Assembly (NCBI GenBank): GCA_017656135.1
Contig: JACDOJ010000002.1
Coordinates: 65,120 to 129,119 of the forward strand
Direction of reading: 5' to 3'
Source of the DNA: Bacillota bacterium
Lineage (GTDB): Bacteria > Bacillota > UBA5301
DNA: 64,000 nucleotides
The position numbers and the translations under genes were made by a program. The notes under the pieces were generated by a model. That model worked only from the letters and a program-made list of their open reading frames with translations, did not search any database and was not told where the DNA came from. This document shows positions 626 through 54,297 of the stretch, piece by piece; position 1 is the first letter of the stretch; every line of letters begins with the position of its first letter.

Positions 626-1990
626 ATGGAAAACTTCGACCAGAAGATATACACTGTGCTGGAAGTCAACCGGTTGATTAAGCGGGAGTTAGAGGCCTCC
701 CCCTTATTCCGCAGCCTCCTTGTCCGGGGCGAGATCGCCGGTAAAGTGACCCTGTCCCAGAGGGGCCACCTCTATTTTGACCTCAAAGATGAGGCCAGCC
801 AGATTCCGTGTGTGATGTTCAGTTCCTACCTGCAGAATTATGAGTTCGGTACCTTGGAACACGGGATGAAAGTGATCTGCTCGGGCTCAATCACGGTTTA
901 TCCCCAAGGGGGGAAGTACCAGCTCAGGGTGGAGGAGGTCTTTCCCGAGGGGTTAGGTCGGCTGTACTTAGCTGCGGAGGAACTGAAGAAGCGGCTGAAG
1001 GAGGAAGGCCTGCTGGACCCGGAGCGAAAACGCCCTCTCCCCAAACATCCCAAGCGTATTGGGGTGGTGACCAGTCCTGTGGGGGCGGCCATCAGGGATA
1101 TCGTCACGGTAGCCCGCCGACGCTACCCCAATATTGAGATTTTGCTTTCGCCCAGCCTGGTTCAGGGAGCCAAAGCCCCGGCCAGTTTGGTTGCGGCCCT
1201 TAAGAATCTGTACACCCAGTCTGATATTGATGTGATTATTATTGGCCGGGGTGGGGGATCCTTTGAAGAGCTGAACGCCTTCAACCACGAGGATGTGGTC
1301 AGGACCATCGCAGCCTCTCCGGTTCCGGTGGTTTCCGCTGTTGGGCACGAGACCGATTACACCATTGCCGACCTGGTGGCTGACCAGCGGGCACCGACCC
1401 CCTCGGCCGCGGCGGAACTGGTGGTACCCGAGAAGGATCAACTCTGTTCCCGCCTGAATGAGCTGGTTCAGAAGGCCTGTAGGGCTATGGGGCGGCGCTT
1501 GGAGCTCTCCCGGCGGGAGCTGGCCAGGCTCACCTCCAACCGGTACCTGGCCCATCCCCGCCTGCTCATCGAAGATGCCGTCCAAAAACACGATGAATTG
1601 GAGATCCGCCTTTTGCGCTATGGACCGGCTGCGGTGATCAAGTGCCGGCCGGAGTTAACTCAGGTTATGCACAGACTGCAGGTGATCATAAGGGCGTTGA
1701 TTAGGGAATCCCGGAGTCTAGTTGAACACACCAGCAAAGACCTGCAGAAAATTGCCTGCCAGCTGCTTAAGGGACTACGCACCCAGTTCCAGGGTGCCGC
1801 GGGCAAACTGCAGGCTTACAGCCCATTAAAGACTCTGGCCAGGGGATACAGCGTCTGTCAGGATCCGGTCACGGGTAAGGTGATTACAGCTGCAGGTCAA
1901 GTTAGCCGCGACCAGGAGCTGATAGTGAAGCTGGCTTCCGGCAGTCTGGATGTGACTGTGCGAGAAACCTACGGGGAGGAAACAACGTGA
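626..1990 (+). CDS. xseA: exodeoxyribonuclease VII large subunit
   Basis: 454 aa with an OB-fold N-terminus. It is followed by an overlapping small subunit gene. Confidence 0.85.
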   Translation: MENFDQKIYTVLEVNRLIKRELEASPLFRSLLVRGEIAGKVTLSQRGHLYFDLKDEASQIPCVMFSSYLQNYEFGTLEHGMKVICSGSITVYPQGGKYQLRVEEVFPEGLGRLYLAAEELKKRLKEEGLLDPERKRPLPKHPKRIGVVTSPVGAAIRDIVTVARRRYPNIEILLSPSLVQGAKAPASLVAALKNLYTQSDIDVIIIGRGGGSFEELNAFNHEDVVRTIAASPVPVVSAVGHETDYTIADLVADQRAPTPSAAAELVVPEKDQLCSRLNELVQKACRAMGRRLELSRRELARLTSNRYLAHPRLLIEDAVQKHDELEIRLLRYGPAAVIKCRPELTQVMHRLQVIIRALIRESRSLVEHTSKDLQKIACQLLKGLRTQFQGAAGKLQAYSPLKTLARGYSVCQDPVTGKVITAAGQVSRDQELIVKLASGSLDVTVRETYGEETT

Positions 1991-2274
1991 AGGAAAAAGA
2001 TTTTAGCCAACTATCCTATGAAGAAGCCTTCTCTAGATTGGAAAGAATAGTTGAAGCCCTGGAAAGAGGAGATCAGGGTCTGGATGAATCCTTGAAACTC
2101 TTTGAAGAGGGCATTCAGTTGAGCTCGATCTGTAATAAGCGTCTCAATGAGGCCGAAGCCCGCCTGGAGAAGCTGGTGCAAGATGCCAGCGGCCATTTAA
2201 GGCGGGAAGAGTTTACGGTCCAACCTGAGGAGCAGGCGGGGGAGGAAAACTTTCAAGATGACCTCCCCTTTTAG
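1987..2274 (+). CDS. xseB: exodeoxyribonuclease VII small subunit
   Basis: 95 aa helical protein with 'LSYEEAFSRLERIVEALE'. It overlaps the xseA stop by 4 nt. Confidence 0.85.
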   Translation: MKEKDFSQLSYEEAFSRLERIVEALERGDQGLDESLKLFEEGIQLSSICNKRLNEAEARLEKLVQDASGHLRREEFTVQPEEQAGEENFQDDLPF

Positions 2275-3133
2275 AGAATACAGCGAGCTGGTAGAGAAGG
2301 CCCTGGAAAGACTCTTGCCGGCAGAAAGTCTTCCCCCTGCCCAGCTTCACAGGGCCATGCGCTACACTTCGCTGGGTGGCGGGAAACGGCTCCGGGGTAT
2401 GCTGGTTTTGGCTGGGGCAGAAGCTATTGGTGGGGACCGGGAGCAGGTCTTGCCGGCGGCGGCAGCGGTGGAGTTGGTACATGCCTACTCTCTGATCCAT
2501 GATGACCTGCCGTGCATGGACGATGATGACTTGCGTCGGGGGAAACCCGCCAATCACGTGGTCTTCGGTGAAGCCGTAGCTCTCCTGGCCGGTGACGCCC
2601 TCCTCGCCGAGGCCTTCAAGATCTTGGCCGACCTGGATAGGGTCTATCCAAGTGAAAGGGTATTGGCGGCCATTAAGAGTCTGGCCAGGGCCTGCAGTTC
2701 CCAGGGGATGGTCGGCGGCCAAGCGGAAGACTTGGCCAACACCGGCGATTTGACCCTAGCTGAGTTGGACTGGATCAATGACCGCAAGACCGGGGTTCTG
2801 ATCGTGACCTCTCTGGTTATTGGGGCTCAACTGGCTGGAGGGGGCGGGGCTGAACTTGCAGCCCTCTCCACCTACGGAACCAAAGCCGGCCGGGCCTTTC
2901 AGATCATCGATGATATCTTAGATGAAGTTGGGGATCCGGAGGTTACCGGCAAACCCAGCGGCAGTGACCGGGCCTCTGGTAAGCGGACCTATCCGGGGCT
3001 TTTAGGCATCGAAGGCGCCCGGGCAAAAGCCGCCCAGTTAATTGAGGAGGCCAAGGCGGCCTTGGCTGAACTTCCGGGAGAGACAGGCTTTTTGGTTGAT
3101 CTTGCCGATTACATTTTAGCCAGGGACCGGTAA
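2258..3133 (+). CDS. ispA: farnesyl/geranyl diphosphate synthase (polyprenyl synthetase)
   Basis: The first DDxxD motif is 'LIHDDLPCMDDDDLRRGKP' and the second is 'FQIIDDILD'. Confidence 0.9.
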   Translation: MTSPFREYSELVEKALERLLPAESLPPAQLHRAMRYTSLGGGKRLRGMLVLAGAEAIGGDREQVLPAAAAVELVHAYSLIHDDLPCMDDDDLRRGKPANHVVFGEAVALLAGDALLAEAFKILADLDRVYPSERVLAAIKSLARACSSQGMVGGQAEDLANTGDLTLAELDWINDRKTGVLIVTSLVIGAQLAGGGGAELAALSTYGTKAGRAFQIIDDILDEVGDPEVTGKPSGSDRASGKRTYPGLLGIEGARAKAAQLIEEAKAALAELPGETGFLVDLADYILARDR

Positions 3134-3139
3134 AGAAGG

Positions 3140-3598
3140 TTGGAGGAGAATGTGGGTTTTTTTCACTTGTTGTTCGTGGAAAACCGGGTTTTTAAAGCGG
3201 CTTTAATCGCATGGCTCTTGGCCCAGGGTTTAAAGGGGATCTTCGTTTTCATCAAGAACAAACGTTTCAACTTCGAGCGCTTCGTCGGCCCAGGGGGTAT
3301 GCCCAGCTCTCATTCGGCCTTTGTTTCCTCGATCATCGTGGGGATTGGGCTCTCTGAGGGTTGGGACCAACCCATCACCGCTCTGGCCATAGTCTTCGGC
3401 CTGATTGTGATGTACGATGCCGCGGGGGTGCGGTATAACGCCGGCAAGCAGGCGGAGATCCTCAATAAAATCGTCGATGATATTTACCACGGTGGAAAAG
3501 TCCGGGAAGATCGCCTTAAGGAACTCCTGGGGCACACTCCGGTGGAGGTCTTTGCCGGAGCCCTTTTAGGGGCCGTGGTCTCTCTCTTGCTGGTTTAA
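3140..3598 (+). CDS. divergent PAP2-family (DUF212) membrane phosphatase-like protein
   Basis: 152 aa membrane protein with 'YNAGKQAEILN' and 'GMPSSHSA' motifs typical of DUF212/acid-phosphatase-like proteins. Confidence 0.6.
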   Translation: MEENVGFFHLLFVENRVFKAALIAWLLAQGLKGIFVFIKNKRFNFERFVGPGGMPSSHSAFVSSIIVGIGLSEGWDQPITALAIVFGLIVMYDAAGVRYNAGKQAEILNKIVDDIYHGGKVREDRLKELLGHTPVEVFAGALLGAVVSLLLV

Positions 3599-3614
3599 GC
3601 GGCGTATGTTATAA
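3586..3614 (+). promoter_or_regulatory. sigma-A-type promoter for OLE RNA (TTGCTG-17-TATAAT, extended TG)
   Basis: The -35 'ttgctg' lies at the end of the DUF212 gene. A 17-nt spacer separates it from 'tgttataat'. Confidence 0.45.
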
Positions 3615-3620
3615 TACCTA

Positions 3621-4240
3621 GCGAAATACTAGTCAAGGTGGCGCAGTATTCTAGTCAAAGCACAATTGCTTGAAGACGGGCCTAAAGATCCGTCAAAGGG
3701 CACATCGATGAAGTCCCTGGTGTTGGCTTTGGACGCCCAGTCCGGGGTTGATGCTGGGGGTTAAGGTATCGGGGCGATCCGTAAAGGCATACGGGCGTTG
3801 ACCCTGGTACCGCGGAGACCTAAGTGCGTGGGAAACCTGAGAGGGCCAACTACGGCTTAGGAAGAACCTGCACGCGATGCGAACCGTACATAGGATAGTG
3901 TTGGGTGCAGTGTAGCCTGCCTTGAGCGATGCTGGTGGGGAGCAGGTTCAAGTCTTTGCTGAAGGCCTAAGGCAAGGACCTTCCGCTGCTTGAAACCTTC
4001 ATCGCAAAAGAGGCTAGAGCAATTGGTGCTTTGTCGAGGAAATCTCCTAGACTGTTCCTACCGGAGGCTATGTGGGGATTGTAGTGTGGACTAAGTGGTA
4101 ATTCAGCCTGGCAGATGGTGACACTGCCATGCAGTTTTTAATGGGAAACCACCAGATCGGCGACGACTGGCAAACTGTAGGGAAATACCTGCTGGACCTA
4201 AGCCACAATCTTTACTCACATAGCTGCCACCTGACGCAGG
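3621..4240 (+). ncRNA. ole: OLE (ornate, large, extremophilic) RNA
   Basis: This roughly 620-nt GC-rich region has no ORF of 60 aa or more in any frame. It sits in the conserved xseA-xseB-ispA-[OLE]-oapA-dxs-tlyA-nadK-argR-recN context of OLE-carrying anaerobic Firmicutes, has a strong upstream promoter and many short complementary segments. The ends are approximate. Confidence 0.6.
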
Positions 4241-4249
4241 AGACAAGTA

Positions 4250-4786
4250 ATGTTAAGAAGTTTCTTAACTTTAGGTTTTTGGTCCGGATTATTTGCTCTT
4301 TTCTTTAACATCATTTCTCAAACACTGCTCACACAGGTCGGCTTGGTGCCGGCTTTTATCTTATTGCTTGCTGTCGTTGCTTTCGGTATCTTTTTTGACC
4401 TCATCGGAACCGCTGCTGCAGCTGCCGACGAAAAACCCTTTCATTCCATGGCCGCAGCCCGGGTCAAAGGCGCCAGGACCGCTGTTTGGCTGGTGCGAAA
4501 TGCCGATAGGGTCACCACGGTCTGCAATGACTTAATCGGCGATATTAGTGGAACTCTAAGTGGTGCCATGGCGGCAGCCATCGTTTACCGCATCCTCCTC
4601 ATCAGACCTGGATTGTCCGAGACAGTCCTCTCCACGCTGATGGTGACTGTGGTTGCGGCTCTGACGGTAGGAGGCAAAGCCGCCTGGAAGAAAGTTGCCC
4701 TCACCTATTCCGAACAGATTATTTACCGGGTTGCGAGGGTTATCAGATTCCTATATCGAAGAGAATTAGCCAGAAAAAAACGATGA
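4250..4786 (+). CDS. oapA: OLE-associated protein A (small four-helix membrane protein)
   Basis: 178 aa with four predicted transmembrane helices and a basic C-terminus, lying between the OLE region and dxs as in characterised OLE loci. Confidence 0.6.
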   Translation: MLRSFLTLGFWSGLFALFFNIISQTLLTQVGLVPAFILLLAVVAFGIFFDLIGTAAAAADEKPFHSMAAARVKGARTAVWLVRNADRVTTVCNDLIGDISGTLSGAMAAAIVYRILLIRPGLSETVLSTLMVTVVAALTVGGKAAWKKVALTYSEQIIYRVARVIRFLYRRELARKKR

Positions 4787-4802: not shown

Positions 4803-6692
4803 GTGGCCCAGTGGTTAGAGAAGATCAAGTCTCCTGCGGACCTGCGTGGGCTCAGCAGGGACGAGCTTTACGCCTTGGCAGCTGAAATCCGCCGGGAGAT
4901 CATTAAGACTACCTCCCAGACCGGCGGCCACCTGGCCCCGAGTTTAGGCGTGGTGGAGCTGACCATCGCCTTACACTGCTGTTACAACAGCCCTAAAGAC
5001 AAAATAATCTGGGACGTGGGTCACCAGGCCTATGCGCATAAACTTCTGACCGGAAGATACGATCGTTTTTCCACCTTACGCCAGTTGGGGGGGATTAGTG
5101 GTTTCCCCAAGCGGGAAGAAAGCCCCCATGATCCCTTCGGCACTGGGCACAGCTCCACCAGCATTTCTGCAGCCCTAGGCTTCGCTGAGGCCCGGGACAT
5201 GGCCGGAGAAGATTATGAGGTGGTGGCGGTCATTGGCGATGGCGCCATGACAGGCGGAATGGCCTTTGAGGCCTTGAACCACGCCGGCCACTTAGGCACA
5301 AAGCTGACCGTTATTCTCAATGACAACGAGATGTCCATCGCTCCCAATGTGGGAGCCTTGTCCAATTATTTGACCCGGCTGCGCACTGATCCCACCTTCC
5401 GCCGGGCCAAGAACGACCTGGAGTACGTGCTCCGCCGAATACCGGCCATCGGTGAGACTGTAGTCAAGGCGGCTCAGCGTCTCAAAGATAGTCTGAAGTA
5501 CTTGCTGGTTCCCGGGATGCTCTTTGAGGAGTTGGGTTTCAAGTACTACGGTCCCATTGACGGTCACAACATCGATCTACTCATCAACACCCTTAATGAG
5601 GTGAAAACTAGACAGGATCCGGTTTTGGTGCACGTCCTCACCGAGAAGGGTCGGGGCTACAGACCGGCTGAGACCGATGCCTCCGCCTTTCATGGATTGG
5701 GACCCTTTGACATCAGAACCGGAAAGAAACACAAGAACAACGAGAAACCTCGGTTCACCCAGGCTTTCAGTCGGGCTTTGGTGGAACTGGCCAAAGAGGA
5801 CGAGCGTATTGTGGCCATAACGGCAGCTATGCCGTCGGGAACTGGGCTTGAGGAGTTTGCCCGCCTCTTTCCGGGCCGTTTCTACGATGTGGGCATAGCG
5901 GAACAGCACGCCACCACCTTTGCTGCCGGTTTGGCCGCTGGGGGCTTCAAGCCCGTCTTCGCCGTTTACTCCACTTTTTTACAGCGCGGTTACGATCAGG
6001 TCGTCCACGACATCTGCCTCCAGAACCTGCCGGTGGTTTTGGCTGTGGACCGGGGCGGGCTGGTAGGCGAGGATGGTCCGACTCACCACGGGGCTTTTGA
6101 TCTGAGTTTCTTGCGTTCCATACCTAACTTGGTTCTGATGGCTCCCAAAGACGGCCGGGAGCTTCGGGGTATGCTGCGGGCTGCCTTCCGGCACCAGGGC
6201 CCGGTTGCCCTGCGCTATCCCCGGGCTAACTGCCCGGACACCTTGGAGGATGAGAGCTGGCCCAGAATTGAGATTGGCAAGGGAGAAGTTCTAGCGGATG
6301 GTTCCGACTTGACCCTGATTGCAGTAGGTTCCATGGTACAGGTGGCCGAGGAAGTTGCCGCCCGCCTGAAGCCCCAAGGCATTGAAGCGGCTGTACTCAA
6401 TGCCCGCTTTGTCAAACCTCTGGATCAGGACCTTATACTACGCTACGCCGCCAAGTCCGGCAAGGTGGTTACCCTGGAAGAAAGCGCCGTGCAAGGAGGT
6501 TTCGGCTCGGCGGTCTTAGAGCTGTTAGCCAACGCCGGGCTCACCTGCCCTACCCTCACCCTGGGGATACCTGACAACTTCATCCCTCACGGCAGCCGCC
6601 AAGAGCTCTTGGAGCTAGTGGGGCTGACTCCAGAGAGAGTGCTGGAGACGGTGACCAGCTGGCTAGGTCACCGCTGGGTGAGCCATGGCTAA
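4803..6692 (+). CDS. dxs: 1-deoxy-D-xylulose-5-phosphate synthase
   Basis: 629 aa with the thiamine-diphosphate motif 'GDGAMTGG' and a transketolase-like C-terminus. It starts with GTG. Confidence 0.9.
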   Translation: MAQWLEKIKSPADLRGLSRDELYALAAEIRREIIKTTSQTGGHLAPSLGVVELTIALHCCYNSPKDKIIWDVGHQAYAHKLLTGRYDRFSTLRQLGGISGFPKREESPHDPFGTGHSSTSISAALGFAEARDMAGEDYEVVAVIGDGAMTGGMAFEALNHAGHLGTKLTVILNDNEMSIAPNVGALSNYLTRLRTDPTFRRAKNDLEYVLRRIPAIGETVVKAAQRLKDSLKYLLVPGMLFEELGFKYYGPIDGHNIDLLINTLNEVKTRQDPVLVHVLTEKGRGYRPAETDASAFHGLGPFDIRTGKKHKNNEKPRFTQAFSRALVELAKEDERIVAITAAMPSGTGLEEFARLFPGRFYDVGIAEQHATTFAAGLAAGGFKPVFAVYSTFLQRGYDQVVHDICLQNLPVVLAVDRGGLVGEDGPTHHGAFDLSFLRSIPNLVLMAPKDGRELRGMLRAAFRHQGPVALRYPRANCPDTLEDESWPRIEIGKGEVLADGSDLTLIAVGSMVQVAEEVAARLKPQGIEAAVLNARFVKPLDQDLILRYAAKSGKVVTLEESAVQGGFGSAVLELLANAGLTCPTLTLGIPDNFIPHGSRQELLELVGLTPERVLETVTSWLGHRWVSHG

Positions 6693-7497
6693 ACAACGGT
6701 TAGATGTGCTCTTGGTGGAACGGGGCTTTTTTGAGAGCCGGGAGAAGGCCCAGGCAGCAATCATGGCCGGGGGAGTGCTGGTCAATGGAAAGGTGCACAC
6801 AAAACCTGGCACCAAATTTCTCCCCTCTGAAACCGAAGTTGAGGTCGTCTCAGATCCTCTGCCTTATGTGAGCCGGGGCGGGTTAAAACTGGAAAAGGCC
6901 ATCAAAGTCTTCGGGATAGACCCCACCGGCAAGCACTGCCTGGATGTAGGGGCTTCCACCGGGGGGTTTACCGACTGCCTCCTGCAGCACGGGGCGGAGA
7001 AGGTCGTAGCTGTGGATGTTGGTTATGGGCAGCTGGCCTGGTCCCTGCGGCAGGACCCACGGGTCATTGTTATGGAGAAGACCAATATCAGGCACCTCCG
7101 CCTGGAGGACCTGCCCTTCGTCCCCGATGTGATTACGGTGGACACCTCCTTCATCTCCGTAACTAAGTTTTTGCACCTCTTGTACGAGTTTTTGCAGCCC
7201 GAAGGGGAATTGGTTTCTTTGATCAAGCCCCAGTTTGAGGCGGGCCCCCACCAGGTCGGCAAGGGAGGCATTGTCCGGGATCCTGGGGTCCAAAAAGAGG
7301 TTTTGGCCTCTGTTTTGGATCATGCCGAAGTGCTTGGTTTCAGCCTCAAGGGGCTGACCTTCTCACCGGTGAAGGGCACTAAGGGGAACGTCGAGTTTTT
7401 GGCCTACTTCACCAAATCAGATAAACCGGAGGCCCTTGACGCCCCCAAGACAGAACTAATTGAAAGGGTAGTCAAAGAGGCCCAGCAAGAGCTGTAG
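6685..7497 (+). CDS. tlyA: TlyA-family rRNA 2'-O-methyltransferase (hemolysin A-like)
   Basis: S4 domain 'RLDVLLVERGFFESREKAQAAIMAGGVLVNG' followed by a FtsJ-like methyltransferase domain 'LDVGASTGGFTDCLL'. Confidence 0.85.
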   Translation: MAKQRLDVLLVERGFFESREKAQAAIMAGGVLVNGKVHTKPGTKFLPSETEVEVVSDPLPYVSRGGLKLEKAIKVFGIDPTGKHCLDVGASTGGFTDCLLQHGAEKVVAVDVGYGQLAWSLRQDPRVIVMEKTNIRHLRLEDLPFVPDVITVDTSFISVTKFLHLLYEFLQPEGELVSLIKPQFEAGPHQVGKGGIVRDPGVQKEVLASVLDHAEVLGFSLKGLTFSPVKGTKGNVEFLAYFTKSDKPEALDAPKTELIERVVKEAQQEL

Positions 7498-7516
7498 GAG
7501 GTTACTTACCATAAGC

Positions 7517-8413
7517 GTGACATGGGCAGTATATATTAACCAATCGAAAGAGCGGGCTTTGGATACCGCCCGTCAGCTGCAAGAGTTTTGCAAAAAGCTG
7601 GGCTACCAAACGGTGACTCCACAAAAAGAGCTGGCCAAGAAGCTGAACTTCTCTCTGGAGGAGCCTGGTAGACCTCCCCAGTGCGCTGTGGTCATCGGAG
7701 GCGACGGGACGCTGTTAGGTGCAGCTCGGCACTATGCTCCCCTGGGGGTTCCGATCTTAGGTGTTAACCTGGGACACTTAGGTTTTTTGACCGAAGTGGA
7801 GGTCTCTAGCTTTGCCGAGGCCCTCCACCGGGTGGTCAAAGGGGAGTACACTCTCGACGAACGGAGGATGCTCTCGGTTAACCTCTGCCGGGATGGGCAA
7901 ACCATCGGGACCTACCTGGCTCTCAACGATATGGTTGTGACCAGAGGGACCTTTGCCCGGATCATCACTATTGATGTTTTAATTTCCGGGCATAAAGCCG
8001 ATCGCTACCGTGCCGACGGTATCATCGTGGCCTCTCCTACAGGTTCCACCGCCTATTCCTTGGCTGCCGGCGGCCCGGTTGTAGACCCCAAAGCTGAGGT
8101 CCTGGTGATTACCCCCATCTGTCCTCACAGCCTGCGAGGTCGGGTCATGGTCGTCCCGGATCAGGAACAGGTAGAGATAAAGGTGATTCACGGCGGCGGT
8201 GAGATCATGCTCACCGTGGATGGGCAGGTCGGTTGTCCCCTAAAGCCCGGGGATGTGGTGGAAGTGGTCCGCTCAAAGCACACCACCAAATTGATCCGCC
8301 TCGCCCAGCGCTATTTTTATGATCTCTTCCGCTCACGGATTGGCGGCAAGTGTGAGGAGGATGAAGGTGAAGGCGAAGCGTCACAGGCTAATTCTGGAAC
8401 TGGTGGAAAATGA
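7517..8413 (+). CDS. nadK: NAD+ kinase
   Basis: 'GGDGTLL' and 'NDMVV' motifs. The C-terminal acidic tail overlaps the argR start. Confidence 0.85.
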   Translation: MTWAVYINQSKERALDTARQLQEFCKKLGYQTVTPQKELAKKLNFSLEEPGRPPQCAVVIGGDGTLLGAARHYAPLGVPILGVNLGHLGFLTEVEVSSFAEALHRVVKGEYTLDERRMLSVNLCRDGQTIGTYLALNDMVVTRGTFARIITIDVLISGHKADRYRADGIIVASPTGSTAYSLAAGGPVVDPKAEVLVITPICPHSLRGRVMVVPDQEQVEIKVIHGGGEIMLTVDGQVGCPLKPGDVVEVVRSKHTTKLIRLAQRYFYDLFRSRIGGKCEEDEGEGEASQANSGTGGK

Positions 8414-8861
8414 GGTCATCGAGACTCAGGAACAACTCACCAAACGGCTGGCTGAGGAAGGAGTCGAGGTGACCCAAGCTACCGTCTCTCGGGATATCAA
8501 AGACCTGGGTTTGGTTAAGTTGTTCACTCCTGACGGAAGGTACAAGTACGGGCTTCCCTCAGCGGAGCAGGTTACCGGTGATGCGCTGCAGCGGGCCACC
8601 CGGATTTTTCAGGAGTTTGTCACCTCTGTGGAGCGTAGCTTCAACCTGGTTATTGTCAGATCGGCTCCGGGTACAGCCAACACGGTGGCAGCTGCCCTGG
8701 ATGCACTGGCCTGGCCGGAGATAGCCGGCACGGTAGCTGGTGATGACAGTGTGCTGGTCATCAGCCGGGACGGTCGTGAGGGGAGCGAGCGGACTGAGAT
8801 CAGCAGGATGGAGGAAATTACCAGAAGGCTTGAGGAAAAATTGAACCAGCTGCGAGGGTAA
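8361..8861 (+). CDS. argR: arginine repressor
   Basis: 'MKVKAKRHRLILELVENEVIETQEQL...VTQATVSRDIKDLGLVK' matches the AhrC/ArgR winged-helix N-terminus. The start was chosen internal to the track ORF. Confidence 0.85.
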   Translation: MKVKAKRHRLILELVENEVIETQEQLTKRLAEEGVEVTQATVSRDIKDLGLVKLFTPDGRYKYGLPSAEQVTGDALQRATRIFQEFVTSVERSFNLVIVRSAPGTANTVAAALDALAWPEIAGTVAGDDSVLVISRDGREGSERTEISRMEEITRRLEEKLNQLRG

Positions 8862-8865
8862 GAGC

Positions 8866-10569
8866 ATGCTCACCGATTTGCATGTAGAGAACTTCATACT
8901 CATTGAAAGCCTGGATGTGGAGTTTGGCCCGGGTCTCAACGTAATCACCGGTGAGACCGGAACCGGCAAATCCATCCTCATGGAGGCCATCACTCTCCTC
9001 GGAGGAGGCCGGGGTTTTGGTGAACAGGTCAGAGCAGGCAGCGAGGAAGCCATCATCGAAGGGGCTTTCGATGTAACCGGGCTGGTCGGAGTCAAGGAGC
9101 TCCTTGCGGCAAAGGGTTTGACTGTCGGGGAAGGAACCCTTGTCCTCTCCAGGCGTATCCAGGTCAAGGGCCCTAACCGCTGCCGGATCAATGGCCAGTT
9201 GACCACGTTAGGGGACCTGACTGAGGTCGGCAGCAGTCTGATGGACATCCAGAGCCAGGGGGAACACTACTCTTTGCTTAGTCCCAAAGAGCACCTGAGA
9301 ATCTTGGATGCCTACGCAGGGGCGGAACTAGCCGCTATTAAAGGCGAGTACCAAGAACTTTACGCCAAATACAGCCGGCTCCAGGAGGAACTGACCAAAC
9401 TCAGCCAATCTGAAGCTGAGCGGGCCCGCCGTATAGACATGCTGAAATTTCAGGTGGAGGAGATCGCTGCCGCCGGTTTTCAGGAAGGTGAGGACCAAGA
9501 GCTCATCGAACGCCGCAACATCCTGCGGAACGCTGAGAGGTTGGCGGAAGAGACCTCAAAGGCCTATGGTTTGATCAGAGAGGGTTTTGGTGAGCTGCCA
9601 GGGGCTTTGGACAGCTTGCACGAGGCTGCCGCCAGTTTAGAGAAGATATGCCGGATTGACTCCAGCTGGGAGGAAACCCTTACCGGGTACAATGCTTTGC
9701 TCAGTTCTTTGGAAGAGGTGGCCGACCGGCTCAGGTCTTACTTAGAGGAGCTGAATTACGATAATGCCGAGCTGGACCAGCTGGAGTCCCGGTTGGCTCT
9801 GGCTGAATCCCTCAAGCGCAAGTACGGTCCGGAGCTGGCCGATGTCTTGGAGTACTTAGCCCAGGCCCGGGAAGAGCTGGCCACTTTGGAGACCTCAGAC
9901 CTCCGCCGAAAGGAGCTGGAAGCCAAGATTGACCAGGTGGCCACAGACCTGAGAGAGTTGGGTTTGGCCCTGCGCCGGAGGAGGGAAGAAGGGGCCAAAC
10001 GGCTGGAAGCAGCGGTCCAGGCTGGCTTAGCTGAACTGAGATTTACCGGAGCCAGGTTCACTGTCAAGGTGGAACCTCTAGAGGGTTTTCACCCGGATGG
10101 TATGGAGGAAGTGGAGTTTTTCTTCAGCGCCAATCCCGGAGAAGATCTTAAACCCCTCAACAAGGTGGCCTCCGGTGGCGAGCTTTCGCGGCTGCTTTTG
10201 ACGCTCAAAGGGGCCCTGGCCGCCTCTGAGGGGGTTCCGGTTCTTATTTTCGATGAGATTGACACCGGTACCAGCGGTCGGACGGCCCAGGCTATCGCCG
10301 AGAAACTTTACCAGCTTTCCCGGGACTATCAGGTCATCTGTGTGACTCACCTGCCCCAGATTGCAGCCATGGGCGACCGGCACATCCTGCTGGAGAAGGA
10401 AATCGACCCTCAAGGCCAAAGCACAAAAGTGTGTGTCCGCATCTTGAATGAGGATGAACGCATCGCTGAGTTGGCCCGACTCCTTGGCGGAGTGGCAGTG
10501 AGTGAAGCTACTTATCAAGCAGCCCGTGACCTTTTGAAGCAGGCGGAAGGATATAAAAAACCCTACTAG
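8866..10569 (+). CDS. recN: DNA repair protein RecN
   Basis: 567 aa SMC-like protein with Walker A 'GETGTGKS', a coiled-coil middle and 'LIFDEIDTG'. Confidence 0.9.
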   Translation: MLTDLHVENFILIESLDVEFGPGLNVITGETGTGKSILMEAITLLGGGRGFGEQVRAGSEEAIIEGAFDVTGLVGVKELLAAKGLTVGEGTLVLSRRIQVKGPNRCRINGQLTTLGDLTEVGSSLMDIQSQGEHYSLLSPKEHLRILDAYAGAELAAIKGEYQELYAKYSRLQEELTKLSQSEAERARRIDMLKFQVEEIAAAGFQEGEDQELIERRNILRNAERLAEETSKAYGLIREGFGELPGALDSLHEAAASLEKICRIDSSWEETLTGYNALLSSLEEVADRLRSYLEELNYDNAELDQLESRLALAESLKRKYGPELADVLEYLAQAREELATLETSDLRRKELEAKIDQVATDLRELGLALRRRREEGAKRLEAAVQAGLAELRFTGARFTVKVEPLEGFHPDGMEEVEFFFSANPGEDLKPLNKVASGGELSRLLLTLKGALAASEGVPVLIFDEIDTGTSGRTAQAIAEKLYQLSRDYQVICVTHLPQIAAMGDRHILLEKEIDPQGQSTKVCVRILNEDERIAELARLLGGVAVSEATYQAARDLLKQAEGYKKPY

Positions 10570-10640: not shown

Positions 10641-11942
10641 TTGTGGTCTAAAGCGTGGCGGATTACCAAGTTCATTTTTTGGTCTTTTTTATTTCTCGGG
10701 TTCGCTCTATGGTTCGGTTGGTTCAACATCAACTCCTCCCTGGGGATTCCGGAGCACTTTCGGCTGATCCAGGGGAGGGAGCAGTCTTTCTCCACCAAGT
10801 GGCCCCTTAAGGTCGGTCTCTCCTCAGATACTTCCGGTATCATCCAGGTTAAAAAAGGTTCAGAGTTCAAGATCACCCCTTTAAGGCCAGGAGAAAGTAG
10901 CTTGGACCTGAGCCTTTTTGGGGTTATTCCCCTAAAAGACCGGGTGATTTCGGTAGTGCCGGAACTGAAGGTGGTTCCCGGCGGTGAATCCATTGGGGTG
11001 ATGTTAGCTGCTCAGGGGTTGATTGTAGCTGAGCTGGCCAGGGTCAGGGATCTGGACGGCCGGCTGGTTTCTCCGGCGGCTGAGGCCGGGGTCCGTCCAG
11101 GAGACCTTCTGATCCAGATCAACGAGGTAAAAATCAACGATCCCCTAGATGTGGAAGCCGCCCTCAGAAAGGCCAACCCTTCCCAAGTGACCTTGAAGAT
11201 CAAGCGGTCCGCCAAATACCTGACGATTCCGGTGAAGCCGGCGGTGGTCCCTGGGGAACAAGGAGGCTATAAGCTGCGGTTAGGGATATATCTGGAGGAT
11301 ACGGCGGCTGGGGTCGGGACGCTCAGTTTTTACCATCCTGAGACCGGCAAGTATGCTGCCTTGGGCCACATGATCACCGACGCCCGTACTGGGGAAAAGG
11401 CGGAAATCACCGACGGCAGGATCGTCCCGGCTTTGGTTGCCGGCATCAGGAAGGGGATCCGGGGACAGCCTGGGGAGAAAATAGGTGTTTTTCAGGACCG
11501 GGCGGCGAGCCTGGGCGTCATCTCCGAAAACTCGCCCATCGGCATTTTCGGCGTCTTAGAGGAGATTCCCAAGAAAGAGAAGGCGATACCTCTGGCCATG
11601 GCCCACGAGGTGGAGCCCGGTCCGGCTCAGATTCTGACGGTCATCGAGAATGACACTGTGGAGAGTTTCGAAATTGAGATCATTAAAGTCAACAGGCAAT
11701 CAGAGCCCAGCGGTAAGGGGATGGTAATTGAGGTTAAAGACCCCAGGCTGTTAGAGGTCACCGGGGGAATTGTGCAGGGCATGAGCGGCAGCCCCATTAT
11801 TCAAAAGGGAAAACTGGTAGGTGTGGTAACCCATGTTTTCGTCAACGATCCCACTAAGGGGTATGGAGTTTACGCCGAGTGGATGGCCTCGGAGGCCGGC
11901 ATCTTCTCTGACCTGGTCAAAAACCTAGAACCGGCAGCTTGA
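10641..11942 (+). CDS. spoIVB: stage IV sporulation protein B, S55 signalling serine peptidase
   Basis: N-terminal transmembrane segment, a PDZ domain and an S55 peptidase domain ('GMSGSPII'). It sits in the argR-recN-spoIVB-spo0A position. The TTG start is uncertain. Confidence 0.8.
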   Translation: MWSKAWRITKFIFWSFLFLGFALWFGWFNINSSLGIPEHFRLIQGREQSFSTKWPLKVGLSSDTSGIIQVKKGSEFKITPLRPGESSLDLSLFGVIPLKDRVISVVPELKVVPGGESIGVMLAAQGLIVAELARVRDLDGRLVSPAAEAGVRPGDLLIQINEVKINDPLDVEAALRKANPSQVTLKIKRSAKYLTIPVKPAVVPGEQGGYKLRLGIYLEDTAAGVGTLSFYHPETGKYAALGHMITDARTGEKAEITDGRIVPALVAGIRKGIRGQPGEKIGVFQDRAASLGVISENSPIGIFGVLEEIPKKEKAIPLAMAHEVEPGPAQILTVIENDTVESFEIEIIKVNRQSEPSGKGMVIEVKDPRLLEVTGGIVQGMSGSPIIQKGKLVGVVTHVFVNDPTKGYGVYAEWMASEAGIFSDLVKNLEPAA

Positions 11943-11992
11943 GCAGGAAGAAGCTGGAGCAGGTAGAAGTTACAGAATGGAGGTTTTTGACA

Positions 11993-12757
11993 ATGAGAAC
12001 TACCCGGGTTTTGATAGCCGACGACGAAATGGACTTAGCAGAATTACTTGCAGATGCCATCAGGCGGGTTTCCGACCTGTCTCTGGCGGGAGTTGCCCAT
12101 GACGGAGAACAGGCTCTTGCCCTCATTGATCAGGTCAAACCCGATGTGGTTCTTCTGGATATGATCATGCCCAAACTGGATGGGATAGCGGTCTTGGAGG
12201 AGCTCAAGCTCCGCTCTGGACCTAAACCTAAGGTTATAGCCCTAACAGCCCTGGGGGAAGCGGAGATGACCCAAAAAATCCTGGCTTTGGGGGCCAGTTA
12301 CTACATTATCAAGCCCTTTAAGACTGACCTTTTGCTCAGGAGGATCCGCCAGGTGGCTCAGGAGAAACCCGACTTGCGGCCTCTGGCCCTGCACCACCCT
12401 AATGTGGAAGTGGAAAGGAAAGTGGTAGAACTAGTCATCCAAATCGGCATCCCACCCTCTCTCAAAGGGTACAACTACGTCAAAGATGCTATTTTGATCG
12501 TCCTGGAAAACCCGGCTTACCTTACCGGGGTCACCAAGAAGCTATACCCGTACATTGCTGAGAAGTACGGCACGACCGCCGGGGTGGTGGAGCGTGCCCT
12601 GCGCAGCGCTATCGAGTACGCTTGGATGCACGGGGACCCCGATTACCTCTATTCCTTATTTGGCTCCACCATTAAGAGCAGCAAAGGCAAACCCACCAAT
12701 ACCGCTTTTATCGCCAGGGTGGCTGATTTGCTCAAATATGACTCCTCTACCGCATAG
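11993..12757 (+). CDS. spo0A: sporulation master regulator Spo0A
   Basis: Receiver domain 'VLIADDEMDLAELL...DVVLLDMIMPKLDG' plus the Spo0A-specific C-terminal DNA-binding domain 'GIPPSLKGYNYVKDAI'. Confidence 0.9.
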   Translation: MRTTRVLIADDEMDLAELLADAIRRVSDLSLAGVAHDGEQALALIDQVKPDVVLLDMIMPKLDGIAVLEELKLRSGPKPKVIALTALGEAEMTQKILALGASYYIIKPFKTDLLLRRIRQVAQEKPDLRPLALHHPNVEVERKVVELVIQIGIPPSLKGYNYVKDAILIVLENPAYLTGVTKKLYPYIAEKYGTTAGVVERALRSAIEYAWMHGDPDYLYSLFGSTIKSSKGKPTNTAFIARVADLLKYDSSTA

Positions 12758-34031: not shown

Positions 34032-34104
34032 AGGCAAATAATGGCAGGAGTGCCAGGGGGAAACCGGAATATATATCACTGAAACCTATTTGGAGGTGGA
34101 TGTG

Positions 34105-34746
34105 ATGTTTGTCAAAGATAAAATGTCCACGGACCTGGTGACAGTCTCCCCGGAGACCAACATCTTAGATGCTCTGGAACTGATGAGGAAGAACAACATT
34201 CGTCGTTTACCGGTAGTAGAAGGAGATAAGTTAGTAGGAATGGTGACGGAGATGGACCTGGTGAGGCTCTCTCCATCCCCAGCCACCTCGTTAAGTGTAT
34301 TTGAGCTCAATTACTTATTGGCCAAGACCAAGGTCAAAGATGCGATGACAGCCAACCCCATCACAGTCGACTCCGAGGCTACCGTGGAGGAAGCCGCCCT
34401 GATCATGCGGACGAACCAGATCGGAGGTCTGCCAGTAGTCCACAACGGCAAACTGGTGGGGATTATTACTGAGACAAATATTTTTGATGCCTTCATTGAA
34501 TCCATGGGCCTACGGCGGGCCGGCACCAGGATCGCCATCGATGTGGAAGACCACCCTGGAGTCCTGGCCGATATCACTCAGGTCATCTACAAATCGGGCA
34601 TTGACATCATCACCTTAGCCACCTTCTCCGGAGAAGAGGGCAAGGCCCGGATTGTGGTGAGACTCGCGGTGGATTCAGCTGATCAGCTCATCAAGGAGCT
34701 GGAAAGTCACGGCTACAAGGTAGCCCACGTGGCCAACCTGCACTGA
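34105..34746 (+). CDS. CBS-pair plus ACT domain protein (AcuB-like)
   Basis: Two CBS motifs ('LVTVSP...', 'PITVDSEATV') followed by a C-terminal ACT-like domain. Confidence 0.65.
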   Translation: MFVKDKMSTDLVTVSPETNILDALELMRKNNIRRLPVVEGDKLVGMVTEMDLVRLSPSPATSLSVFELNYLLAKTKVKDAMTANPITVDSEATVEEAALIMRTNQIGGLPVVHNGKLVGIITETNIFDAFIESMGLRRAGTRIAIDVEDHPGVLADITQVIYKSGIDIITLATFSGEEGKARIVVRLAVDSADQLIKELESHGYKVAHVANLH

Positions 34747-40888: not shown

Positions 40889-41140
40889 TAAAATGTCATC
40901 TGCTACAGCGATGAAGGGAAGAGTAGCAGCGCTCAGCCTGTTCCAGAGAGCCGATGTAAGGTGCGAGTTCGGCACAGGAACCGCTGTGAAGATCATCCCT
41001 GAGTTGAGAGCCGAAGTTTTCCAGTAGGCCTCACGGGTGCTGCCGTTATCCAGCAAAAGAGCGGACAGTTTTCTTCTGTCAATTAGGGTGGTACCGCGGG
41101 AGTACTCTCGCCCCTTAGGGGCGAGTTTTTTATTTTTCAG
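40889..41140 (+). promoter_or_regulatory. T-box riboswitch leader (Ile-specific) with intrinsic terminator
   Basis: Conserved T-box 'AATTAGGGTGGTACCGCG' at 41081-41098. Terminator 'CTCGCCCCttagGGGGCGAG' plus a U-tract at 41107-41135. An AUC codon candidate lies at 40992-40994. The region is upstream of ileS. Confidence 0.85.
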
Positions 41141-41174: not shown

Positions 41175-43982
41175 GTGAGCGACGCAGTCAAGGTCAATTA
41201 CTCAGATACCTTGAACTTGCCGAAGACTGATTTCCCCATGCGGGGCAACCTTCCCAAGAGGGAGCCGGAGATCCAGGCCTTTTGGGAGGAGCACCAGATC
41301 TACCGCAAAGTCCAAGAGCAAGCCAAAGAACGGGGTTATCCCACCTGGATCCTGCACGATGGCCCCCCATATGCCAACGGACACATCCACATCGGGCATG
41401 CTTTGAATAAGACCCTGAAAGATATTTGCGTGAAGTACAAGGCCATGCAGGGCTACCACACCCCCTATGTACACGGTTGGGACACCCATGGCCTTCCCAT
41501 TGAGACCAGGGTTATCAAGGACCTAGGGGTCAATCGCAAGGGTGTCAGCCCCTTGGAGTTCCGCAAAAAATGCAAAGACTACGCCCTGAAGTTCATGAAC
41601 ATCCAGAAGCAGGAGTTCCAGCGGCTGGGGGTCTGGGGGAACTGGGATGACTCCTACTATACTCTCCTCCCTAAGTATGAGGCCAAACAGATTGAGGTTT
41701 TTGGGGAGATGGCCCTCCGGGGGCATATTTACAAGGGCCTGAAACCGGTCTACTGGTGTGTCTCCTGTGAGACCGCCTTAGCTGAAGCTGAGGTTGAGTA
41801 CGATGATAAGAAGTCTCCTTCCATCTACGTGAAGTTCCCGATGATCGATGATAACAAGCTCTTTGGCGGCGATCTGACCAATACCTACGTCATCATCTGG
41901 ACTACAACCCCCTGGACGATTCCGGCCAACCTGGCCATCTGTCTGCATCCGGATTTTGATTACGCTTTGGTCCAGGTGGGAGGGGAACGGTATGTGGTCG
42001 CCGCTGAGCTAGTGGAAAAACTCTCCCAGGAGCTGAACTGGGAAGAGTATGAAGTCCTGCTGAGGTTCAAGGGCAGGGAGCTGGAACGGGCTTTGTGTAA
42101 GCACCCCTTGTTTGACCGGGAATCCTTGCTCATCCTTGGTGAGCACGTCACTTTAGAACAAGGTACCGGTTGTGTTCACACCGCCCCCGGCCACGGTGAA
42201 GAGGACTTTTTGGTCGGTTCCGAATACGGTCTGCCGGTCTTCAACCCAGTGGATCCCACCGGCCACTTCACTGAGGAAGCCGGTCCCTACGCCGGTTTAG
42301 ACTTGGAGGAAGGTAACAAGGTCATTGCCAAGGACCTGGATGAAGCCGGAGCGCTGGTGAAGTTCGGCTTCATTCGGCACCAATTCCCCCACTGCTGGCG
42401 CTGTAAAAACCCGATCGTTTTCCGTGCTACTGAGCAGTGGTTCGCCTCTGTAGACGGTTTCCGGGAGGCTGCCCTAAAAGCCATCGGCGAAGTCAAATGG
42501 CATCCGGCCTGGGGTGAAAACCGCATAGCCAACATGGTTAGGGAGCGCCGGGACTGGTGCATCTCCCGTCAGCGGGTTTGGGGCGTGCCGATTCCGGTCT
42601 TCTACTGCCAGGCTTGCGGGGAGCATATCATCACCCGCGAGACCATTGATGCAGTCAAGGAGCGCTTTGCTGAAGAAGGCTCTGATGCCTGGTTTAAATA
42701 CGAGGCCAAGGAACTCTTGCCCGACGGGTTCACCTGTCCCCACTGCGGTGCTGCTGAGTTTCGGAAGGAGAGCGACATCATGGATGTCTGGTTTGACTCA
42801 GGCTCCAGTCACAGGGCCGTGCTGACCCAGTGGCCGGATCTGAAATGGCCTGCTGACCTCTACTTGGAAGGGAGCGATCAGCATAGGGGCTGGTTCCAGT
42901 CCTCCCTACTGACCTCAGTGGCCACCACCGGGAAAGCACCGTACAAAGAGGTGTTGACCCACGGGTTCATCGTCGATGAAGAGGGCCGGAAGATGTCTAA
43001 ATCCCTGGGGAATGTCATCGCCCCTGACAAGGTCATCAAAGAGTACGGAGCGGATATTCTGCGCCTCTGGGTTTCTTCGGCCGATTACACCGATGACATC
43101 CGGGTATCCAATAACATTCTGAAACAAATGGCTGAGGTTTACCGCCGGATCCGCAACACCGGACGGTTCATCCTTGGAAACCTCTCCGATTTTGATCCGG
43201 AGAAAGACAGTGTACCCTATGAGGAGCTGCCTGAGATTGACCGCTTCGCCCTACACAGGCTCCAGGAGATCCTGGATAAGCTGACCACGGCTTTTGATAA
43301 CTACCAGTTCCACGTCTTCTACCACACCGTGCACAACTACTCGGCGGTGGACTTAGGCGGCTTCTACTTGGATGTGTTGAAGGACCGGCTGTACACCTCA
43401 CCGGCTAAGAGTCATCTCAGGCGCTCCGCTCAGACCGTGCTCTATGAGATCATCAACGTTCTGGTCAGGGTAATCAGCCCGGTTTTGGTCCACACCGCCG
43501 AGGAGATGTGGCAGCACCTGCCACAGACTACCGATAAACCTGTGAGCGTACAGCTGACTTCCTGGCCCAAGGTGAATGAGAAGTACCGGGATGAAGAGTT
43601 GGCGGAGAGGTGGAACCGGTTGTTGAAGATCAGAGATGTGGTGAACAGGGCCCTGGAGGCTGCCCGCTCAGAAAAGACCATCGGAAACAGCTTGGAAGCG
43701 GCGGTGACCCTGTACACCTCCGATGGTGAACTGAGAAAATTCTTGGAGCAGTACAAGTCGGAGTTGGCCACGGTCTTCATCGTCTCCAAGGCGGAGCTGG
43801 CGCCGGAGGGGGCTGCTCCTGGGGCAGAAGCCGTGCGGGATTCCGAACTGGATTTGGCTGTCTTGGTAAGTGAAGCACCTGGGGATAAGTGCGAACGCTG
43901 CTGGATGTACTCTGAGGAAGTGGGGCAGAGCAGCCAACATCCCACACTTTGTCCTCGCTGCGTTGAGGCTATTAGCGGCTAA
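41175..43982 (+). CDS. ileS: isoleucine--tRNA ligase
   Basis: 'HIGHAL' (HIGH), 'KMSKS' and a C-terminal Zn-finger 'CERC...CPRC'. It starts with GTG. Confidence 0.95.
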   Translation: MSDAVKVNYSDTLNLPKTDFPMRGNLPKREPEIQAFWEEHQIYRKVQEQAKERGYPTWILHDGPPYANGHIHIGHALNKTLKDICVKYKAMQGYHTPYVHGWDTHGLPIETRVIKDLGVNRKGVSPLEFRKKCKDYALKFMNIQKQEFQRLGVWGNWDDSYYTLLPKYEAKQIEVFGEMALRGHIYKGLKPVYWCVSCETALAEAEVEYDDKKSPSIYVKFPMIDDNKLFGGDLTNTYVIIWTTTPWTIPANLAICLHPDFDYALVQVGGERYVVAAELVEKLSQELNWEEYEVLLRFKGRELERALCKHPLFDRESLLILGEHVTLEQGTGCVHTAPGHGEEDFLVGSEYGLPVFNPVDPTGHFTEEAGPYAGLDLEEGNKVIAKDLDEAGALVKFGFIRHQFPHCWRCKNPIVFRATEQWFASVDGFREAALKAIGEVKWHPAWGENRIANMVRERRDWCISRQRVWGVPIPVFYCQACGEHIITRETIDAVKERFAEEGSDAWFKYEAKELLPDGFTCPHCGAAEFRKESDIMDVWFDSGSSHRAVLTQWPDLKWPADLYLEGSDQHRGWFQSSLLTSVATTGKAPYKEVLTHGFIVDEEGRKMSKSLGNVIAPDKVIKEYGADILRLWVSSADYTDDIRVSNNILKQMAEVYRRIRNTGRFILGNLSDFDPEKDSVPYEELPEIDRFALHRLQEILDKLTTAFDNYQFHVFYHTVHNYSAVDLGGFYLDVLKDRLYTSPAKSHLRRSAQTVLYEIINVLVRVISPVLVHTAEEMWQHLPQTTDKPVSVQLTSWPKVNEKYRDEELAERWNRLLKIRDVVNRALEAARSEKTIGNSLEAAVTLYTSDGELRKFLEQYKSELATVFIVSKAELAPEGAAPGAEAVRDSELDLAVLVSEAPGDKCERCWMYSEEVGQSSQHPTLCPRCVEAISG

Positions 43983-47344: not shown

Positions 47345-47384
47345 TACACTAACATAGAAAATGAATAACCGAAGCACCCTTTAA

Positions 47385-48057
<673 letters not shown>

Positions 48058-54268: not shown

Positions 54269-54297
54269 TTGACTATTTTGGGATGCTCTGGTAGTAT
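54269..54297 (+). promoter_or_regulatory. sigma-A promoter (TTGACT-17-TAGTAT) for purB..purH transcript
   Basis: Read directly. It lies immediately downstream of the purE stop. Confidence 0.55.

Follow-up and report, generated by a model that had tools for sequence, protein, structure and literature searches.

OLE RNAs form a family of which 2,822 representatives have already been catalogued in the Bacillota genomes of GTDB, and the closest described system is that of Halalkalibacterium halodurans, in which OapB and OapC are required partners of the RNA and bS21 is an additional binding partner. According to published work, dimers of the membrane protein OapA bind OLE RNA with a 2:1 stoichiometry and are needed for its membrane localisation, and the loss of the OLE complex leads to sensitivity to short-chain alcohols, cold, a modest excess of Mg2+ and poor carbon sources. 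In Clostridium acetobutylicum, OLE RNA was observed by cryo-electron microscopy (cryo-EM) as a homodimer (Kretsch et al. 2025, PMC12286853). The transmembrane domain of the MpfA/CorB Mg2+ exporters is a distant relative of OapA, and MpfA tends to be missing from genomes that carry OLE; proposals that OLE is a ribozyme or a transmembrane RNA have been published and are unproven. Here we describe an OLE locus within a stretch of 64,000 nucleotides (nt) of the Bacillota contig JACDOJ010000002.1, which is referred to throughout as the window. Positions 3622-4246 of the plus strand are almost certainly the full-length ole gene of an uncultured spore-forming member of the Bacillota, and positions 4250-4786 its obligatory membrane partner, oapA; nothing that we found contradicts this assignment.

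When the whole window is compared with Rfam, the segment 3622-4246 (+) matches the OLE family (RF01071, gathering score 50 bits) with 492.9 bits and an E-value of 1.3e-141, the match being untruncated and extending over positions 1-616 of the 616 in the model. An earlier, sequence-only reading of this DNA had proposed an OLE RNA gene followed by oapA and had suggested a search with the OLE covariance model; that search is positive over the full model length, the downstream product resembles OapA, and no degraded protein gene was found in the gap. The complementary stretches that had been noticed between the DUF212 gene and the 178-amino-acid (178-aa) open reading frame (ORF) are real and, by the covariance score, far beyond chance. 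Two of its descriptions require correction, as the gap between the end of the DUF212 gene (3598) and the start of the ORF (4250) measures 651 nt rather than about 620 nt, and is not GC-rich, its GC content being 52.5%, against 54.8% in the window overall and 57-59% in the genes xseA, ispA and dxs. OLE RNAs have an ornate fold of about 600 nt and contain blocks of highly conserved nucleotides, comprising about 25% of positions; these blocks are all present in the window RNA, namely GCAGUAUUCUAGUC, AAAGGGCACAUCGAUGAAG, GACGCCCAGUC, GUAGCCUGCCUUGAG and GCAAAAGAGGCUAG, as well as the further blocks GAGGAAAnCUCCUAGACUGU, GGACUAAGUGGUAAU, GGGAAACC and GGACCUAAGCC. By published criteria (PMC7936274, PMC11332333), the RNA is of the full-length OLE type, with both the P7-P9 region and the P13 site for OapB present.

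When the base pairs of the Rfam model are projected onto the sequence, 141 of the 155 pairs that have residues here are G-C, A-U or G-U. Covariation was assessed by aligning the window OLE with 20 other OLEs (21 in total), the structure being projected by way of the window sequence in a MAFFT alignment, which leads to an undercount of the variable helices. Across this set, 83.4% of the alignment cells form standard pairs, compared with 40-49% (maximum 48.9%) when the 3' partners are displaced by one to three columns; double-sided changes are observed for 107 of the 155 pairs, and none of 500 shuffles reaches the observed values. Helix P1, which closes the whole RNA, is not included in the Rfam structure and is formed here by AGGUGGC and GCCACCU. 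P1 also covaries, with 91.8% of cells paired and double changes at six of the seven pairs; other species carry, for example, the combinations GAGGGGU/ACCCUCG, UAAAGAU/GUCUUUA and GGCCGGC/GCCGGCC.

The elements that contact protein partners in H. halodurans can be located within the window RNA (Table 1). OapC (YbxF) of H. halodurans recognises a kink-turn (k-turn) built from the junctions J4a/5 and J5/6 (PMC9723947), and both segments are identical to the consensus in the window, including the stretch AUCGAUGAAG (3704-3713) of J4a/5; within its GAUGAAG motif, the G, A and A are invariant in the 21 OLE sequences. At the sequence level, the k-turn elements for OapC are intact. OapB binding requires the GNRA loop and a single-nucleotide bulge of P13, which in H. 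halodurans has a GUGA loop with the bulge two pairs below (PMC7936274). P13 of the window RNA comprises a 6-bp stem with a single bulge (A4115, or G4114 in the Rfam register), U-A and G-C pairs, and a GUGA tetraloop at 4118-4121. In addition, the GCGA loop that caps P14.1 is the counterpart of a weak secondary OapB site in H. halodurans (PMC7936274), and these two GNRA hairpins, which correspond to the OapB site, are present in the window RNA. Published work places the palindromic OapA-binding sites at or close to P2 and P4a; the window RNA has conserved segments around the hairpin 3675-3694 and two segments that contain CUAG (3651-3656, 4047-4054).

OapA proteins are small, with about 180-210 aa and four transmembrane helices, and the 178-aa product of the downstream ORF fits this description. 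The product is deposited at NCBI, with the exact sequence, as MBO8125892.1, 'MAG: DUF21 domain-containing protein [Firmicutes bacterium]' (MAG, metagenome-assembled genome). CNNM/DUF21 (PF01595) is its sole Pfam domain, matched weakly at 31.3 bits (cut-off 28.4); no CBS or CorC domain is detected with Pfam, and no NCBIfam model matches. The protein carries a DxxxD motif, D94-L-I-G-D98 (encoded at 4529-4543), which is distinctive of OapA and absent from CNNM domains (Fernando and Breaker, PMC11332333). A search recovers 843 homologues at E <= 0.001, and in an alignment of 30 of these the residues D50, E61, H65, D94, G97, D98, G101, G105, T139, G142, K143 and K147 are invariant. Compared with a published OapA (Kretsch et al. 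2025, PMC12286853, Supplementary Table 4), the window protein shows 43% identity over 154 residues (E = 2e-33), where the published sequence was taken from the supplementary PDF, may contain small errors, and is not H. halodurans BH2780 itself. The AlphaFold2 model of OapA (predicted local distance difference test, pLDDT, 87.6; predicted template modelling score, pTM, 0.76) contains long helices at residues 2-29, 32-58, 85-118 and 124-152 as well as a C-terminal amphipathic helix; three of the four long helices are strongly supported by Kyte-Doolittle hydropathy and the third helix weakly. The top four Foldseek matches of this model in the PDB are to the archaeal CNNM protein MtCorB (7M1T, 7M1U), with template modelling scores (TM-scores) of 0.51-0.62 and a probability of 1.00, yet E-values of 0.02-0.2, and by sequence the similarity to 7M1T reaches E = 0.07. 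The CorB family is likewise the best structural match of H. halodurans OapA (PMC11332333). The DxxxD motif, the helices, the fold match to CorB and the identity to a published OapA all bear out the proposal that this four-helix membrane protein fits OapA.

The association between the RNA and the protein is maintained across the homologues. The ATG of oapA lies 18 nt past the 3' strand of P1, and an Rfam scan of 17 homologue loci, which include Halalkalibacter, Rossellomorea, Aeribacillus, Thermovenabulum and Limnochordia, finds in all 17 a full-length OLE immediately upstream of the homologue and on its strand (404-558 bits). With an nhmmer profile, OLE is detected upstream in 69 of the 69 loci that have at least 760 nt of upstream DNA, 66 of them being essentially full length, and most loci with shorter upstream DNA show the expected 3' fragment of OLE. 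The nearest OapA relatives share 79%, 74%, 72% and 72% identity, after which identity drops to 54% for the best matches beyond this clade, which come from Bacillota or Limnochordia MAGs. The 79% and 72% proteins are carried by contigs (L081-L084) that have the same gene order as the window, from the Asp23-family genes and nusB through to spoIVB, with OLE at the same place (487-493 bits). Relatives of the clade are present in the sequencing runs SRR34110880, SRR33305000 and SRR23857664 as well as in assembly GCA_036678605.1.

Two of the surveyed loci merit separate mention. In an Eubacteriales MAG (L053, 1-585), 585 nt up to the contig end precede the oapA homologue and give no OLE match with nhmmer or Rfam (E up to 0.01); this is the sole such locus with several hundred bases upstream, and its cause may be contig-end assembly, a longer spacer, or a missing or divergent OLE. 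The lowest-scoring OLE (403.9 bits), in an Anaerosolibacter MAG (L030, 3213-3833), matches the nhmmer profile from position 94; its first ~95 nt do not align with other OLEs and resemble the final part of the DUF212 gene that lies upstream. This RNA may be 5'-truncated, rearranged, or an assembly artefact.

Several points weigh against the assignment, or against the wider account built upon it, among them the provenance of the published OapA sequence mentioned above. Fourteen of the 155 model pairs are non-standard in the window copy; these cluster in the hairpin apices at ~3819-3862 and 3926-4004, that is, in the P7-P9 periphery, which published work describes as the variable region of the OLE family. 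No gene for OapB (KOW) or OapC (L7Ae/YbxF) is present among the ~60 ORFs of the 64-kb window compared with Pfam, as expected given that these genes are not normally adjacent to ole. The promoter, the co-transcription and the processing of the RNA are all deduced for the window organism, and the transport-regulation mechanism discussed below is a published hypothesis rather than an established fact.

The ole gene is preceded by a sigma-A-type promoter, in which TTGCTG (3587-3592) is separated by a 17-nt spacer from the extended -10 element TGtTATAAT (3607-3615). The elements and their spacing are as the sequence-only reading had described, whereas its designation of the promoter as strong holds only in part: the extended -10 is perfect and would alone account for such strength, while the -35 is weak, matching TTGACA at three of six positions, which is why a consensus promoter scan did not list the site. 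Transcription is predicted to start near 3620-3623, about 6 nt past the -10; the beginnings of the Rfam match and of the conserved AGCGAA likewise fall at 3620-3622. Equivalent promoters are found in two relatives, L081 (TTGAGG-18-TATAAT with an upstream TG, 10/12, ending 6 nt before the OLE match) and L083 (TTGAGA-18-TATAAT with TG, 11/12, ending 5 nt before the OLE match). Since the position of the promoter is conserved and the sequence farther upstream is not, the promoter is likely to be dedicated to ole in the clade of the window.

A terminator scan finds no terminator-like site between ole and oapA, and the AGGAG Shine-Dalgarno sequence of oapA follows the last helix of the RNA by 5 nt, so that co-transcription of the two genes is very likely. 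In line with this, a polycistronic transcript has been reported from H. halodurans. As dxs begins 16 nt past the oapA stop codon, transcription probably continues into dxs, and read-through beyond it is plausible; read-through from ispA and the DUF212 gene into ole is possible.

A terminator-like hairpin lies inside oapA (Table 1), where it is followed by a UUUUAUCUUAUU U-tract. One could envisage that ole constitutes an autonomous, highly expressed unit in the clade, with its own promoter and with a partial terminator in oapA that ends most transcripts ~120 nt past the OLE; such a terminator would give rise to a high OLE:OapA ratio and to a precursor for 3' trimming. All three lineages of the clade have kept the hairpin (L081 6087-6115, L083 6084-6118), with a folding energy of -12.3 kcal/mol (z = -2.15) in the window and of -11 to -12 kcal/mol (z = -2.2 to -3.4) across the clade, and it includes one compensatory change from G:C to A:U that alters two amino acids (G31D and P34S). 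Outside the clade, a hairpin is found at the equivalent position in 8 of 79 loci, and we therefore reject it as a family-wide feature. Given this rarity, the hairpin is probably incidental to the coding sequence, a by-product of Gly, Pro, Ala, Phe and Ile codons, and the autonomous unit is improbable.

A still less likely reading is that the 650-nt region serves solely as an extended, structured 5' leader through which the expression of oapA (and dxs) would be regulated in cis, instead of being a stand-alone, processed and abundant RNA. The contiguity of OLE and oapA, the closely spaced Shine-Dalgarno sequence and the lack of a terminator do make a joint primary transcript very probable. In H. 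halodurans, however, OLE is processed at its 3' end, ranks fifth in abundance among RNAs other than ribosomal and transfer RNAs, is bound in trans by OapA, OapB and OapC, and is found at the membrane. Moreover, the protein-binding motifs are intact in the window RNA, and we see no expression platform of the riboswitch kind, for example an alternative terminator or a structure that would sequester the Shine-Dalgarno sequence. We consider a leader of this kind very unlikely, and the stand-alone OLE RNA remains our preferred reading.

That the locus might be a decaying, non-functional relic of OLE is suggested by the non-standard pairs noted above and by a 15-nt insertion that interrupts one hairpin loop, and rare defective ole genes have indeed been published, but in organisms without OapA. 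By contrast, oapA is intact here and retains all of the invariant residues, all of the highly conserved blocks of the RNA are intact, and the score of 492.9 bits is mid-range among those of the 17 other OLEs. The three lineages of the clade, whose OLEs share 84-86% identity, provide a direct view of how the RNA changes: 42 of 162 modelled pairs vary within the clade, of which 30 stay standard in all three lineages, 16 of them through double-sided changes. This maintenance of standard pairing indicates that the window OLE is under structural selection, and the insertion, too, is identical in all members of the clade. A relic is therefore highly improbable.

The insertion in the window, compared with the Rfam consensus, is located within the loop of a hairpin (Table 1) and is unchanged in L081, L083 and L084 while the flanking stems vary. 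Unrelated and longer extensions are present at the same site in the OLEs of Limnochordia (L004) and AS23 (L002), suggesting that the insertion represents ordinary peripheral variation. It could alternatively serve as a lineage-specific docking site, an idea that is weaker than that of the autonomous unit. A pairing of CAUAG (3890-3894) of the insertion with CUAUG (4068-4072) was considered and rejected, because the partner changes in L081 with the loop remaining constant and is already engaged in P12.

The two remaining readings can be set aside briefly. It is exceedingly improbable that the window RNA is one of the reduced OLE variants 1 or 2, which have no P7/P8 or OapB site and fewer partners (Fernando and Breaker 2024), since, although the consensus mismatches do fall in P7-P9, the region that is shortened in the variants, the whole model is covered, none of the three positions lacks its hairpin (one hairpin being extended rather than shortened), and the GNRA loop and bulge of P13 are intact. 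A degraded or unannotated protein gene, or a set of small ORFs, with incidental RNA-like features can be dismissed to the same degree: minus-strand frames of up to 84 codons from stop to stop and an ATG-initiated ORF of 59 aa (4129-4308), the biggest overlapping the gap, do exist, but no ORF of 60 aa or more within the gap starts with ATG, GTG or TTG, as had been claimed before, the four longest open frames have no significant match in Pfam (best E = 0.27), and the substitutions are compensatory within RNA helices rather than codon-like, in line with the covariance-model E-value.

By analogy with H. halodurans and C. acetobutylicum, the OLE RNA encoded in the window would be trimmed and fold as a homodimer, and OapA dimers, as deduced from other organisms, would anchor it to the cell membrane. 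The further partners OapB, OapC and bS21 would bind the RNA where the genome encodes them, and the resulting particle would contribute to tolerance of alcohol, cold, excess Mg2+ and poor carbon sources. OapA might then operate as a CNNM-like module for the transport or sensing of divalent cations (Mg2+) that is devoid of the CBS and CorC regulatory domains of MpfA/CorB, with the OLE RNA supplying the regulatory and scaffolding role of these missing domains; we regard this as the likeliest mechanism but hold it tentatively, giving it slightly less than an even chance. The window copy adds no evidence for or against the mechanisms that have been proposed for OLE. No MpfA-type CNNM-CBS-CorC gene is present in the 64-kb window, which fits the anticorrelation between MpfA and OLE and says little about it. 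A separate gene at 34090-34746 (+) encodes a protein with a CBS pair and an ACT domain and without a transmembrane domain.

The genes surrounding ole and oapA follow the arrangement that is commonest among other OLE loci. All of the flanking genes named in the sequence-only reading, that is, xseA, xseB and ispA upstream and dxs, tlyA, nadK, argR and recN downstream, are confirmed with Pfam and NCBIfam, and the downstream genes from dxs to recN (4803-10569) are tightly packed on one strand (+). We fetched 80 genome loci encoding OapA homologues, among which ispA is found upstream of ole-oapA in 56 of 62 other loci and xseA in 52 of 62, whereas dxs and tlyA are found downstream in 62 and 65 of 69, respectively. 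The description of the neighbourhood as canonical is therefore upheld, the DUF212 gene alone being a minority feature (9 of 62). ArgR has been put forward, on unpublished evidence, as a candidate OLE-binding partner (PMC12265935, PMC12054373). Typical hosts of OLE are Bacillota that are anaerobic or extremophilic and form spores; in keeping with a spore-forming Bacillota host, genes for Spo0A, SpoIVB and both dipicolinate synthase subunits (A and B) are present in the window.

Table 1. Positions in the window of the ole-oapA locus, its functional elements and its neighbouring genes.
Feature	Position	Strand	Basis or remark
xseA	626-1990	+	Pfam
xseB	1987-2274	+	Pfam
ispA	2258-3133	+	Pfam
DUF212 (divergent PAP2, PAP2-like) gene	3140-3598	+	Pfam
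Sigma-A-type promoter of ole	3587-3615	+	Read from sequence
ole gene, full-length OLE RNA (almost certain)	3622-4246	+	Bounds of the Rfam match
Conserved folded core of OLE, 597 nt	3636-4232	+	P1 5' strand 3636-3642, P1 3' strand 4226-4232
J4a/5 segment AAAGGGCACAUCGAUGAAG	3695-3713	+	Identical to Rfam consensus; follows P4a-type hairpin 3675-3694
J5/6 segment GUUAAGG	3760-3766	+	Identical to consensus
15-nt insertion AACCGUACAUAGGAU relative to Rfam consensus	3882-3896	+	Insert in Rfam alignment; loop of hairpin 3868-3910
P13 hairpin	4109-4129	+	Sequence and Rfam alignment; predicted OapB site
P14.1 apex with GCGA tetraloop (4160-4163)	4157-4166	+	Sequence
Shine-Dalgarno AGGAG of oapA	4238-4242	+	7 nt before ATG, 5 nt after P1 3' strand; conserved in relatives
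oapA, 178-aa membrane protein (almost certain)	4250-4786	+	CNNM-like transmembrane domain
Terminator-like hairpin (8 bp, 5-nt loop) and U-rich tract	4335-4366	+	Inside oapA codons 29-39
dxs	4803-6692	+	Pfam/NCBIfam
tlyA-like rRNA methyltransferase gene (S4 + FtsJ)	6685-7497	+	Pfam/NCBIfam
nadK	7517-8413	+	Pfam/NCBIfam
argR	8319-8861	+	Pfam/NCBIfam; four genes downstream of oapA
recN	8866-10569	+	Pfam/NCBIfam
spoIVB	10641-11942		Pfam/NCBIfam
spo0A	11939-12757		Pfam/NCBIfam

Further upstream, a TsaD/Kae1-like gene with a HypF_C_2 domain (30-617, +) is located between nusB and xseA in the clade of the window. The copies in the relatives (L081 1392-2366, L083 1372-2361) encode 324-329 aa, and the partial copy in the window scores 92 bits against a TsaD equivalog cut-off of 296, which suggests a paralogue.

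Three further RNA elements were identified in the window. Rfam assigns the segment 54319-54416 (+) to the 'Guanidine-I riboswitch' with 65.4 bits (gathering score 63), and the element lies between purE (53761-54264) and purB (54485-55885) of a pur operon, not beside guanidine-detoxification genes. Its core reads GGUCCaAGuG, compared with the consensus GGUCCGAGAG. A promoter-like site (54269-54297) is located upstream, and downstream we recognise an 11-bp terminator stem (54411-54421/54433-54443) followed by a U-run; the 5' arm of this stem overlaps the 3' end of the aptamer, an arrangement that fits an ON switch. RNAs of the ykkC subtype 2b, which regulate genes of purine biosynthesis, bind phosphoribosyl pyrophosphate (PRPP); in Heliobacterium modesticaldum, one such RNA that occurs as a singlet ahead of purB has been validated (PMC5912903). 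Most likely, then, the element in the window is a PRPP ON-riboswitch, and the guanidine label given by Rfam is wrong. The other two elements are routine, namely a T-box leader (40902-41118, +; 136.7 bits) that precedes ileS (41175-43982) and a PyrR binding site (47373-47490, +; 61.4 bits) that precedes pyrR, a uracil permease gene, carA and carB.

OLE is among the largest of the structured RNAs of bacteria that still await a biochemical explanation, to which the window copy does not contribute: it is an ordinary member of an already known family that any Rfam scan would find, and it neither raises a new question nor makes an existing one easier to test. Rather, the value of the correct label is that it keeps a functional locus of 650 nt from passing as empty intergenic DNA, and oapA from being filed under its GenBank name as a generic 'DUF21 protein'. 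In addition, the window copy provides a data point from an uncultured and apparently deep-branching clade of Bacillota, which is useful for covariation and for assessing the tolerance of peripheral elements.

Among known systems, the MpfA/CorB/CorC/CNNM transporters, which combine PF01595 with a CBS pair and a CorC_HlyC domain, provide the best structural matches to the transmembrane domain of the window OapA, with weak similarity. OapA differs from them in lacking the CBS and CorC domains, in having the DxxxD motif, four rather than three transmembrane helices, and an RNA partner. We therefore reject its classification as a member of these transporters, since the transmembrane domain stands alone in 178 aa, although it may work partly like one. 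OLE variants 1 and 2, described for the TANB77 and RF39 clades, share the same conserved core nucleotides with the window RNA; they shorten or lose P7-P9 and the OapB site, whereas the window RNA keeps them all. The OLE of C. acetobutylicum (577 nt) belongs to the same family, and its resolved 5' domain elements (PMC12286853), the k-turn and the region of the P4a OapA site, are conserved in the window sequence. By analogy, the window RNA would dimerise.

The closest correspondence is with OLE and OapA (BH2780) of H. halodurans, where the RNA is of the same family (RF01071), length and fold. Relative to two Halalkalibacter species, the RNA identity is ~61-62% and the OapA identity ~46-47%. The clade of the window is distinguished from H. 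halodurans by a 15-nt loop insertion peculiar to it and by remodelling at the apex of P7, and the window locus by the DUF212 gene between ispA and ole as well as by a very short ole-oapA spacer. Shared by both are the P13 GUGA tetraloop with its single-nucleotide bulge, the k-turn sequences of J4a/5 and J5/6, and the position of oapA immediately downstream of ole within a cluster that runs from ispA to dxs-tlyA-nadK-argR-recN.

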